In this document: one piece after another, positions 1-6,000 of the stretch
How positions within the stretch are numbered: position 1 is the stretch's first letter
How the letters are laid out: every line of letters begins with the position of its first letter
From: a virus
Lineage: Duplodnaviria > Heunggongvirae > Uroviricota > Caudoviricetes
DNA: 39,499 nt
IMG/VR virus record: IMGVR_UViG_2563366900_000004
Direction: 5' to 3' (one strand)
Made by a program: the position numbers

Positions 1-3000
1 ATGCTCACCGTTAAGCAGATTGAAGCAGCAAAGCCGAAAGAAAAACCATACCGCCTACTCGATGGTAATGGCCTGTACCTTTATGTCCCTGTATCAGGGA
101 AAAAGGTATGGCAGCTTCGCTACAAGATTGACGGTAAGGAGAAAATCCTGACCGTCGGAAAATATCCACTTATGACTTTGCAGGAGGCAAGAGATAAAGC
201 ATGGACCGCGAGGAAAGACATCTCGGTTGGCATCGATCCGGTAAAAGCGAAAAAGGCTTCGTCTAACAACAATTCCTTTAGTGCGATTTACAAGGAATGG
301 TACGAGCACAAGAAGCAAGTCTGGTCAGTAGGCTATGCAACTGAACTTGCAAAAATGTTTGATGACGACATTTTACCTATCATCGGCGGCCTTGAAATTC
401 AGGATATTGAGCCGATGCAACTGCTGGAAGTAATCCGCAGATTTGAAGATCGCGGTGCAATGGAGCGAGCCAACAAAGCCCGCAGAAGATGCGGCGAGGT
501 TTTCCGTTACGCTATTGTCACTGGTAGGGCTAAATATAACCCGGCACCTGACCTTGCTGACGCCATGAAGGGATACCGCAAGAAGAACTTCCCGTTTCTT
601 CCTGCAGACCAGATCCCTGCATTCAACAAAGCACTGGCAACATTTTCAGGAAGTATCGTATCGCTCATTGCGACCAAAGTTTTACGCTACACAGCCCTAA
701 GAACGAAAGAGCTTCGTTCCATGCTATGGAAGAACGTCGATTTTGAAAACAGGATTATCACCATCGACGCCAGTGTGATGAAGGGACGCAAAATTCATGT
801 GGTCCCGATGTCAGACCAGGTGGTTGAACTTCTCACTACGCTAAGCTCCATCACCAAACCAGTATCAGAGTTTGTTTTTGCCGGGCGCAACGATAAGAAG
901 AAGCCAATCTGCGAGAACGCGGTTCTACTTGTGATCAAACAAATCGGCTATGAGGGTCTAGAAAGCGGTCACGGATTCAGGCATGAATTCAGCACGATTA
1001 TGAACGAGCACGAATGGCCTGCTGACGCTATTGAAGTGCAACTGGCACATGCCAACGGCGGATCTGTGCGCGGTATTTACAACCATGCTCAGTATCTCGA
1101 TAAGCGCAGAGAAATGATGCAGTGGTGGGCGGATTGGCTTGATGAGAAGGTAGAGTGATCCGCCTTAACAACTATCGAAGAGCACAAAGCCTTGTGTGTC
1201 TCATAGGCTATGAAACAATCATTTTACATGGTTACTTCACTACTTCCGCACAATATGATATCGTTCACAATCTAAAAACATTAATAATTTATCCATTACC
1301 GCGGTTAATGCCCGTCGCTTCCAACGGGCTTTTTTGTAAATTATATTTTTATTACCTTATATTAATATTGGTAATATGTCTGCATGATGTTTTATATTTA
1401 TTGCGTGAGCTTCGCATGATAGCTGGAGCATCTCTTGTCATCACTAATTAGCTCCGCTTTATCCGTTCTTGCCCATATTATATTTCTTTTTATTATTTTT
1501 GCTGGATTACCGGCTGCTGCACACATAGATGGCACATCTTTAGTTACAATACTCCCATACCCAATGACAGATCCGCTTCCAACAGATACCCCTTTCATTA
1601 TAGAGACATTTCTCCCTACCCATACGTAACTAGATATAATGATATCTTTTGCCCAATTAATCCTTTTTTTGCTATGAATATCAAATATAGGATGCCCATC
1701 TGATGCACGCAAAATAACATCTCTTGCTATCATGCAGTCATGGCCAATTGTAACATTGCACTTATCAGTGACGACTTCAAAACCTGCACCTATTGTCGTT
1801 CTTCTACCGATAATAACTTTTGAACCTTTTGTTGCGACAATATCACCTTTAATCTTACTGTTTTTATGTATTCTTACGTAATTATTATCACCCCTAAATA
1901 TTACGGTAAGCCATCGACACTCAACATCATCTTCTATAATAAGTTTGTTATTGTTTCCATTGAACTGAACTTTATTCTCTTTGCTATTTACAAGATCTCC
2001 ACATACAAAAATATTACCTGACCCATTATCATCAACGGAAAACGAGTCTTGAGTCTTGAGTCTTGAGTCTTGAGTCTTGAGTCTTGAGTCTTGAGTCTTG
2101 AGTCTTGAGTCTTGAGTCTTGAGTCTTGAGTCTTGAGTCTTGACATATTAGTATCCTACGTTATTTTACCACTAGTTACTTTTCTTGTCATTAAAAAGCA
2201 TTTAAATTTTTATATTTAATTTCGTTGACGTCAATGTTTTTTGCCAATGTACTTACTTCTTTATGTGAGCAGTTCATATTTTTGACGCCAACGAAACATT
2301 TAGTGCTTCCCTTCTATTAAGTCTAACCTAGCTTTTATTCTTTCTATTTCTCTGCGCTGCCATGCCGCCTCGATATAGAATAAGAGATCAGGTCTGACCC
2401 CCCATCTAGATCCTGCTGGCGTTATTTCAACGCGCTCAATGATGTCTTCCATTACCATCACTGGATTATCATCCTCATCAACAATGATGCTCCCGTCATT
2501 ATCAGTCAGCGGCATTTCCCTTTGGCCAGTAATGACGTCATCATATACTGCGGGATAATCGTCATAGCAAAGAAAGGCATAGCGGCATGTTGTGCTTTCT
2601 TCTTCCATGAGTCCGTGAGAAATAAGAACATCACGAAGTTGCTGCGCGATTACACCATGATGTATCCTCGCCCCTTCTTCCCCCTTTATAGCGACAGCGT
2701 TCAGCCATTTATAAGCGATATACCTGACGTCACCCCAGGCATCCAGCAATTCTTCGTCAGGAGAGACCGGCTCTGTCTTTAATGTTCCGTCACTGGTAAC
2801 CACAGGATTGGAGCCAAGATAAACTGTCGAGAACCTGTTTCCCGGACCACCAAGAGCATTTACATTATCAAGATAAGGTTTAACATCTCCGTTCTCAAAA
2901 AGATGTTCGAGTGCGTTATATACCGCGCGACGTGGAGTACTGCTTCCGGAACCATGCAACGTTATCATTGCACCATCTGCTGAAGACGTTGTTTCACCGC

Positions 3001-6000
3001 CGCTAACGATTAATCTCTGAGCGGTAACATCATCAGACGGTACTTTCTTCGCAATAATGGCGTAATTACCCTCAAGTTTGACTTCCGCGCGAACTTGTCC
3101 TGATGTACCTGCATGGACAGTCAGTGACTGGACGGCAACATCATCTGTGAAATCAACGGGTACAGGAACCGTCCTCACGCCTGACGTCGACATAAAAGTA
3201 GGAAGCGTTCTGTTAGGAGTGGCTCCGTAGACAAAATCCCTTGAAACAAATTCTTCCTGTTTAATTTTCACCCTGAAACAATACAAATCAGCCGGGTGAC
3301 CATCGTGAACATAAGGATATTTTCTGTTGTTATCCCCTATGCTCCATGGGTTTAGAAAGTCTTCCCCACCGAAAATGTAGTACAGCCAGTTGTCTTTGAT
3401 ACAAACTGAACCAACACCAACCGCAGAGTTAACTATTCCGCCCTGATAAATCTGATCAGTAACATTAACCCACTCTACATTATCCAGACTCCACTCATTG
3501 ACGTTAACTCTGGTCATAAATGTTCTTGGATAATTTCCTGCATAACGGTTATCAGGTTCTCCTCCTTCCCACTCACCAAATGCGCGCTCACTGCCAAAAA
3601 TAATCAGCTCATCGCCAACTTTGGCAAAAGGAAGGTTTGAGTGATGAACATTATTTGGGAAGCGAAGAGAATTCCATGATGTACCTAAATCAGAGCTTCT
3701 GTGCAATGAACTACCGGGTTGAGTACTTAATGTCCCCCTGGTCGTCAGATACAGAATGCCATCATAATATTTTACACATGGCTCAGATGCATTCGCCTCA
3801 TATTCTGCAGGTATGCGTCTGCGAACAAAGCTACCAGGAGAACCGAAAGCATCAGAGAAATAGAGTATCCCAAGCTCGCGTGGGCCAATATCACCATTAT
3901 GGTAGCCAACAGCAAAACTGTTATCGCTAATCGTCGCAAAACTGTGAATCTCAGTAACAGGAGTGCTTCCGTCAACAAAAGAAGGAATAGTTCCAAGACT
4001 GGTTTTTCTCCATGGTGACGAGTGAAATGATGTACCAAAACTCCAGTATCTACCCTCGTTATTCTGATCCACATCCTGGGTATTTTGCGTCGTAACTGTA
4101 AAAGTATTTTTATCAATAACAGTAGTCACCGTCATATTCCCGGTAACACCTGTAACACCAGAGTTTGAGAAGTTGACAAAATCACCAGCAAATAATCCGT
4201 GATCAGTAATGCGAATATAAGCGACTTGCTGATTTGCTGCTTTCGTTATACCACCATAAACGCGAAGGCTGCGACTCATTGGGCGATCCCACAACTCTGC
4301 AACCTGCAGTTTATTTCCGCTCACGGTCCGCGTCTCAATTACAGCAAAAAGGCGATTTCTGACAACCCCCATACTCATGCAGTGATAGTTAACTGTGGGA
4401 TAGTTTTCATGTAAATCTGTAAGCCATTCCGGCGTTGTCCAGGTCTTCCCGTCATCTCCTGAGCGAACCCATGCAACATGGAGGTTATTTACACCATGGC
4501 GGTCTCCAGCCATAAAAGGCGCATAGATGACATTGTCATATACAAACGTTTTATCCTGCGTCCAGGCGTTGTACCACGGTGTATCTGTAATTTTAAATAA
4601 CTCTCCCTGGATAAAATCTTCAGAAGCATAAAAAAGAGGCTGACCCGGTATTCTCTCAAATAAAAAACGAGCATTTTTAAATCGACTGACATCTGGAAGA
4701 GTTGATACTTTAAAAGTAAGCCCTCGCCCATCTATCTTTTCACCACCTGTTGCAACAGAAAGTAATTCTGATAGAGCTGATGTATCATCATGAACACCAT
4801 CACCAATAGCCCCCCAACCTCTTACATCATAACTGTCTCTCCATCTTGCTATCTGAAGTTTTGGGTATTTATTCGCTCCATCTGGGTCTTCTAATTGCTG
4901 CCGTAACTGATCAGGATCATACTTCAGCACATTCGGAAAATAGAACTGCTGTGTACCATACGCATCATAAACAGCCATAGAATGGCCTTGCACGGTTACG
5001 AACTTGGCAATCTGTCCGTTATATACCGGATATCCAGCGGCGTTAATGATGATTGGTTGCGAAACAGGAACGTGAGAACCATCTTCGTTCTCAACATAGA
5101 CCTGAATCTGGTTTTCAGGATTTACCGGGTCAGTGTCAATTTTACCGATATAAATTTTGCCATTAGCTACGGCTTTAAAAGAACGCGCCATAGTGAAGAG
5201 TTGCGAAGGCATACTCACTACAACATTGGCTGTAATGTCTGTCATTTAATTTGCTCCAGATACAAGGAATCGCCGCAGCATGGCTACGGTTGGCATTTAT
5301 TACATACCGAAACGGTACGATTGTTGATTTGTACAGTAGGTTTTACGATGCCATTCCACCCATTTGGTGAGGCATTGATGATGTACAGCAAATACGATGA
5401 GGCGCAGTTCCACTTGAGGCTTACACACGAGTTGCACGCTAAGATTAAGCAGCGTGCAAAAATGAATAACAGGTCTATCAATTCCGAAATTGTGGCTACG
5501 ATGGAAGAATCACTCTCCAAACCATCACCTGTAAGCGGGTATCGTGATGAAGAAGAGAGGCTGGCCTCATTAATCTCGGAACGAGTAAAAGAAGTTGCGG
5601 CTGAAATTCTAAGGAAAGAAAAAACCCGCGATTAAGCGGGTTTAGTTTTCATTATAAAATGTTACGCCACATTTGAGCCATGTAGCAGGTGTTGTAGTGC
5701 TTTAACGCCTTCAGAATTGTAACGGAACGCCTCTACCTGTTTGCTGGAATGCGCCGATTTATCCAGGAAGAACTTCCCGTACTGCTCAGTTTTGAGGTTG
5801 TTTGCGTTAGCAATGCGACCAATCTTGTTGGCCGTTACTCCAAGCTGCTCTGCAACCTCCCCTGCTGAGTAGTAATGCTCTTCTATTGCCGGAAGAGGTA
5901 TTGCATTAAAACCAACAAGCGGGTTGATTATACTTGCTGCCGCTGTCTGCTTTGCCTCAGGCGCAAGATTTGGCATCAGATCGAACAGATTGGTAACAGC

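Follow-up and report, generated by a model that had tools for sequence, protein, structure and literature searches.

The window analysed here is the whole stretch of 39,499 nucleotides (nt) of IMG/VR virus record IMGVR_UViG_2563366900_000004, from a tailed phage of the Caudoviricetes, and the element under study is the tailspike gene at positions 2300..5245 on its minus strand. The gene encodes a mosaic protein in which a P22-type head-binding domain is followed by an endosialidase body and a C-terminal intramolecular chaperone domain. The protein is nearly identical to the endosialidase tailspike SiaK1 of phage CUS-3, its catalytic and cleavage-site residues are conserved, and genes for the docking partners of a P22-type tailspike are present in the same window. 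The features of the gene are as follows.

2300..5245, minus strand: tailspike gene, siaK1 orthologue of CUS-3, 981 codons plus stop (open reading frame (ORF) call and DNA comparison).
5254..5257, minus strand: Shine-Dalgarno-like GGAG, 8 nt 5' of the tailspike ATG (read from the sequence).
4907..5245, minus strand: P22-type head-binding (tail-hub docking) domain, residues 1-113 (Pfam PF09008).
4811..4906, minus strand: linker and putative recombination joint, residues 114-145, 32 residues (P22-like and K1F-like tailspike alignments).
4610..4810, minus strand: endosialidase N-terminal extension (End_N_terminal), residues 146-212 (Pfam PF12218, 1-67 of 67, E=9e-37).
3260..4609, minus strand: catalytic six-bladed beta-propeller of family GH58 (End_beta_propel), residues 213-662 (Pfam PF12217, 1-367 of 367, E=1e-233).
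4028..4276, minus strand: nested beta-barrel (End_beta_barrel), residues 324-406 (Pfam PF12195, 1-83 of 83, E=1e-46).
2795..3259, minus strand: stalk (End_tail_spike), residues 663-817, the last being T817 (Pfam PF12219, 1-160 of 160, E=7e-78).
2303..2794, minus strand: intramolecular chaperone domain (Peptidase_S74), residues 818-981, 164 residues (Pfam PF13884 and structure 3gw6).
3782-3784, 3737-3739 and 3584-3586, minus strand: catalytic residues E488, R503 and R554.
2792-2794, 2777-2779 and 2642-2656, minus strand: cleavage-site residues S818 and K823, and GVIAQ at residues 864-868.

The ORF begins with ATG and encodes 981 residues with zero internal stops; its limits coincide exactly with the coordinates 2300..5245 given in the original prediction, which had been made from the sequence alone. 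Over its full length, the gene exhibited 98.9% DNA identity to positions 2526-5471 of CP000711, the segment named siaK1 ("endosialidase tailspike protein") in GenBank, and 99.4% to the copy in phage vB_EcoP-720R6. In GenBank, siaK1 is annotated with direct-assay evidence (PMID 16689790) that its product has endo-alpha-sialidase activity. The CUS-3 and 720R6 copies share the window protein's length of 981 residues and are separated from it by only 5-8 substitutions. SiaK1 of CUS-3 is identical to the window protein at 973 of 981 residues, and the 8 differences (V9I, P43T, T98A, P121T, A207V, G767R, T807I and E832T, window to CUS-3 residue) leave the catalytic and cleavage residues untouched. 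Identity as the published CUS-3 endosialidase tailspike, as judged from these alignments, is a point added to the earlier description. Among 5426 complete E. coli genomes, 181 had at least 80% of the gene, and E. coli commonly carries full-length copies with an identity of 99% or higher.

In the prophage phiv205-1 (MN340231, 1345-6740) of avian pathogenic E. coli (APEC), an insertion with two transposase genes splits the same tailspike gene after nt 206, leaving a "bifunctional tail protein" fragment and a 917-residue remainder. This split gene is an example of tailspike inactivation in a lysogen. On that precedent the window gene could be a decaying remnant in a defective prophage, its product still made and no longer an enzyme or virion component, and the adjacent neuO gene is out of frame, although this is normal phase variation. 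Such decay is nevertheless extremely unlikely here: the ORF is full length, as in CUS-3 and 720R6, none of the catalytic or cleavage residues is altered, substitutions relative to the phage copies are few, and the window contains a complete P22-type virion gene set.

The 981-residue protein was searched against Pfam, and domain matches were judged against the curated thresholds. Six Pfam domains exceeded their thresholds, with the endosialidase domains in the order known from endoNF, the endosialidase of phage K1F, and Head_binding placed in front of them. The layout of GH58 is complete, since PF12218, PF12217, PF12195 and PF12219 each match at full length and in order. Homologues in the Protein Data Bank (PDB) span residues 1-118 and 145-979, so that solved structures at 56-93% identity cover nearly the whole protein. 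The three modules of the original prediction were therefore all recovered in the order claimed, with very strong statistics in both Pfam and PDB, and matches of this strength are, at the level of sequence, no chance resemblance. Beyond residue 114, no other depolymerase class was found in Pfam, PHROGs or the PDB, and the significant matches were to endosialidases or to spikes bearing an S74 chaperone domain. An unrelated depolymerase devoid of a chaperone domain, the outcome at odds with the prediction, is thus not what the region encodes, given its endosialidase Pfam and PDB matches and its Peptidase_S74 domain.

At the N-terminus, residues 1-113 covered the entire PF09008 Head_binding profile (1-113 of 113), scoring 223 bits where the cut-off is 24 (E=6e-67). 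Residues 1-118 matched the solved N-terminal domains of Sf6 gp14 and P22 gp9 with E=1e-45 to 1e-67, and the comparison with the head-binding structures 7sg7 (Sf6 gp14) and 1lkt (P22 gp9) gave E=9e-47 to 3e-67. Within residues 1-113, 87 of 113 positions (77%) are identical to P22 gp9 and 105 of 113 (93%) to Sf6 gp14. The proposal that the first 110 or so residues resemble P22 gp9 and the remainder does not is borne out, with similarity to gp9 gone beyond about residue 125. Between this adaptor and the enzyme body lies the linker of residues 114-145, which was absent from the earlier map. In the linker, identity is 84% with the non-endosialidase tailspike of Gally, a P22-like phage, and 59% with a K1F-like tail protein (its residues 214-245); a further match is to 9vvr_A at residues 213-245.

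The mature endoNF fragment of phage K1F (1v0e, E=0) aligns with residues 146-817 along its whole length. Together with the four full-length endosialidase domains in Pfam, this alignment agrees with the predicted endosialidase-type body. The active-site triad of endoNF consists of Glu581, Arg596 and Arg647 (PMC2955717). In the alignment, E581, R596 and R647 are kept as E488, R503 and R554 of the window protein; among the endoNF chains, the mutant structure 3gvj alone has an alanine at the position aligned with R554. The endoNF numbering was checked on a 1064-residue K1F-like protein, in which R596, R647, T910, S911 and K916 occupy the expected positions. In the stalk, R837 and S848 of endoNF are kept as R744 and S755, and the counterpart of Q853 is Met760. 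In endoNF, these three residues make up a sialic-acid binding site of the stalk. Relative to endoNF, the propeller also contains an insertion of 7 residues, FVDGSTP, at residues 423-429 (window 3959-3979).

This insertion, an identity to K1F-type endoNF of only 56-70% by domain and the genetic linkage to neuO, which encodes a polysialic acid O-acetyltransferase, are the observations that would accord with a shifted specificity, for example a preference for O-acetylated polysialic acid or another sialic-acid polymer. We regard such a shift as highly unlikely, because the protein is 99% identical to the CUS-3 enzyme annotated as a directly assayed endo-alpha-sialidase, the catalytic triad is conserved, and the close relatives of the gene all come from K1 hosts or K1 phages.

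The C-terminal chaperone domain had been predicted as about 150 residues starting at residue 831. The domain itself is present (PF13884 and 3gw6), but it starts at S818, 13 residues earlier than proposed, and comprises 164 residues. Residues 818-878 match Peptidase_S74, "Chaperone of endosialidase" (PF13884), at 41 bits against a cut-off of 22 (E=2e-10), and this match begins directly after the stalk. The alignment with 3gw6, which contains the stalk and chaperone domain of endoNF, covers residues 698-979 (E=4e-94), and the chaperone fragment taken through residue 979 still gave E=4e-70. The end of the mature endoNF crystal fragment, ...GSNPIVT (T910), aligns with ...GSNPVVT (T817) of the window protein. 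The conserved serine expected at the cleavage site was located as S818, opposite endoNF S911, with K823 five residues downstream, opposite K916; in 3gw6, the non-cleaving S911A mutant, position 911 is an alanine. In endoNF, the Ser-Lys dyad S911/K916 is needed for cleavage and GVIAQ for trimerisation (PMC3742440, citing Schwarzer 2007 and Schulz 2010). By analogy, self-cleavage is predicted at the T817/S818 bond.

Alternatively, the C-terminal domain might stay attached as a distal receptor-binding or trimerisation knob. The Peptidase_S74 model of Pfam covers no more than the first 61 residues of the domain, and some reviews place receptor recognition in the C-terminal domains of other tailspikes. 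However, the entire domain aligns with the endoNF chaperone through residue 979, and both the Ser-Lys dyad and GVIAQ are intact, which makes retention extremely improbable.

The distribution of the individual modules among other phages was consistent with the predicted swapping of receptor-binding modules on a conserved adaptor. In more than 20 PHROG tailspike families, the part in common with the window protein is confined to residues 1 to about 113-130, and the enzyme body is found on T7-like and epsilon15-like adaptors. On T7-like K1F phages, the body has about 63% protein identity. In the K1F-like tail protein, homology starts at residue 114, and identity is 59% (linker), 61% (N-terminal extension), 70% (propeller), 57% (stalk) and 56% (chaperone domain). 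In Gally, 89% nucleotide identity extends over nt 1-449 of the gene, the head-binding domain is 97% identical at the protein level, and similarity stops at about residue 150-159.

A nearly identical body on another adaptor was found in the tail fibre of vB_EcoP_ZX5 (MW722083, QTH80017), a temperate epsilon15-like Uetakevirus that shares the enzyme body and chaperone domain with the window protein, whereas its N-terminal adaptor of about 200 residues is unrelated. Positions 2542-5661 of ZX5 were compared with window 2332-4724; over nt 522-2914 of the gene (residues ~175-971) the DNA is 99.5% identical, with protein identities of 99.8% in the propeller and 100% in the stalk. In ZX5 the joint falls within End_N_terminal, at about residue 170 in the numbering of the window protein. 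The nucleotide identity of 99.5% points to a very recent exchange between phage genera.

Three left-hand breakpoints were thus observed, at ~114 (K1F), ~150-159 (Gally) and ~170-175 (ZX5). In addition, tblastn detected short matches confined to residues 114-165 in T7-like phages and in large myoviral ones. This module of about 50 residues (window 4751-4906) recurs by itself in otherwise unrelated tail proteins, including those of the P22-like phages IME10, Huey and Gally, the T7-like Vec13, a Phapecoctavirus, Shigella phage SF1-1 and the spike of structure 9vvr. It has the appearance of a widely used joint linking adaptors to enzyme bodies, and the breakpoints and the sharing pattern together fit an exchange of bodies on conserved adaptors with joints falling in residues 114-175. 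A more specific proposal, that residues 114-175 (the linker and the beginning of End_N_terminal) form a portable recombination joint through which one endosialidase body moved very recently between temperate phages of Lederbergvirus (the window prophage and CUS-3) and Uetakevirus (ZX5), is in our assessment evenly poised. If true, the joint would account as well for older transfers to K1 phages of the T7-like and large myoviral kinds; it would extend the principle of module exchange published for CUS-3 rather than establish a new one, and the exchange pattern itself matches that already in the literature.

Other features of the window are listed here.

1-1158: integrase.
1398-2146, minus strand: neuO, polysialic acid O-acetyltransferase.
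2044-2143: AAGACTC contingency repeat array of 14 perfect copies, just after the neuO ATG.
5396-5635, plus strand: Mnt/Arc-type ribbon-helix-helix gene, antisense and immediately upstream of the tailspike start.
5622-5643, both strands: bidirectional terminator-like hairpin.
5662-6441, minus strand: antirepressor-type gene (PHROG anti-repressor match, no Pfam match).
6479-7204, minus strand: antirepressor-type gene (Bro-N and P22_AR_C).
7470-7844, plus strand: second Arc-like gene.
13368-14069: tail needle gp26 (PHROG match).
14069-15487: gp10 (Phage_stabilise).
15496-15978: gp4 (P22_Tail-4).
39299-39499: ORF of 66 residues with only a sub-threshold HTH_17 match.

The left arm of the window has the CUS-3 order of integrase, neuO and tailspike. 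Window 1-5290 is 99-99.9% identical to CUS-3 192-5516, with 99.9% in the flanking int-neuO arm. The immI-like region at 5396-7844 differs from CUS-3, and the ejection, tail, head, portal and terminase block at 7.8-25 kb is ~97% identical to HK620 and ~96% to Sf6. The possibility that the window is phage CUS-3 itself was rejected, as megablast covers only 19,287 of 39,499 nt (49%) and collinearity with CP000711 does not extend genome-wide. This coverage and the HK620/Sf6-like virion block indicate that the prophage is a CUS-3-related mosaic; on these alignments, the K1-specific CUS-3 arm rides on an HK620/Sf6-type virion module. The P22-type docking partners gp4 and gp10 and the virion genes in the window, which also include those for coat, portal and ejection proteins, make the adaptor function of residues 1-113 plausible.

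A promoter and terminator scan around the tailspike gene gave counts near the shuffled expectation, except for the clear bidirectional hairpin at 5622-5643. The window begins exactly at the integrase ATG, so attL lies outside it. At the other end, homology to CUS-3 stops at the 16-bp attR core of CUS-3 (TTGCAGGTTCGATTCC, window 39264-39279), and the final 220 nt of the window fall outside the CUS-3 record. CUS-3 reportedly integrates at a transfer RNA (tRNA) gene, and ARAGORN found no tRNA gene anywhere in the window.

In neuO, the 14 copies of AAGACTC break the reading frame after 52 codons, corresponding to phase OFF, and one repeat added in silico restored a 251-residue hexapeptide-repeat acetyltransferase. 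This result agrees with the published rule that neuO is ON only at repeat numbers that are multiples of three. The neuO gene of CUS-3 has 19 copies, in contrast to the 14 in the window.

Taking the gene and its surroundings together, we consider it nearly certain that it encodes the receptor-destroying tailspike of a temperate, P22-like podovirus of the CUS-3 type that is integrated in a K1 strain of E. coli. By analogy, we infer trimerisation, cleavage, enzymatic activity and virion attachment as the steps of its action. Three chains would fold together, nucleated by the C-terminal chaperone domain of residues 818-981, which would then remove itself by Ser818/Lys823-dependent autoproteolysis at T817/S818 to give a mature trimer whose chains each have about 817 residues. 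The N-terminal domain of residues 1-113 would seat this trimer in the P22-type virion at the gp4/gp10 tail hub. The GH58 endosialidase, with its propeller carrying E488/R503/R554, its barrel and its stalk, would bind and cut the alpha-2,8-polysialic acid of the K1 capsule, and capsule cleavage during adsorption may let the phage reach the outer membrane.

Two observations qualify this reading. Between this allele and the CUS-3 protein that was assayed there are 8 differences, and the surrounding prophage is only about half CUS-3-like, which bears on inducibility and infectivity. No sequence-level argument against it was found in this analysis. The intact ORF, the conservation of the key residues and the 99% identity to the assayed enzyme speak against each of decay, shifted specificity and an unreleased chaperone domain, which even taken together are improbable.

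The main value of identifying this endosialidase tailspike is correct annotation. Since the window is a K1-capsule-specific CUS-3-type prophage, its host was probably E. coli K1, of the extraintestinal or neonatal-meningitis type, and the identity of the tailspike explains the linked neuO switch for capsule O-acetylation. Endosialidases of this family find use as reagents for polysialic acid, and they have also undergone tests as therapeutics against the capsule; the allele in the window adds nothing new to these uses. The mosaic tailspike is a textbook case of how receptor-binding modules are exchanged, one that was published in 2006 and that reviews have repeated. The CUS-3 endosialidase tailspike was reportedly described by Stummeyer et al. 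2006 and King et al. 2007. A tailspike of this type is already known, and the description in the original prediction is correct and not new. The CUS-3 tailspike's N-terminal domain is common to HK620, Sf6 and P22, and its catalytic domain is the K1F endosialidase placed on another adaptor, a clear horizontal module exchange (PMC5380687). It is this account of the same architecture in a review, together with the near-identity to CUS-3 siaK1, that makes the finding both correct and already published.

Among known systems, SiaK1 of CUS-3 (ABQ88383 / CAJ29292) has the same length, the same domain order and the same position beside neuO and the integrase. The tailspikes of P22 (gp9), Sf6 (gp14) and HK620 have in common with the window phage the head-binding domain and the nearby gp4/gp10 genes. 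Their bodies are right-handed beta-helix endorhamnosidases or endoglycosidases acting on O-antigen and, unlike the window protein, contain neither a beta-propeller nor an S74 chaperone domain. The endoNF of the T7-like phage K1F (1v0e, 3gvj-l, 3gw6) is homologous to the window protein from residue 114 to the C-terminus, through the linker, N-terminal extension, propeller with nested barrel, stalk and chaperone domain, and both proteins possess the E/R/R triad and the Ser-Lys cleavage dyad. They differ by the 56-70% identity of their domains, the 7-residue insertion and indels in the chaperone domain. They differ as well in the adaptor, which in endoNF is of the T7 gp17 type (residues 1-213), whereas the window protein has a P22 head-binding domain in its place.

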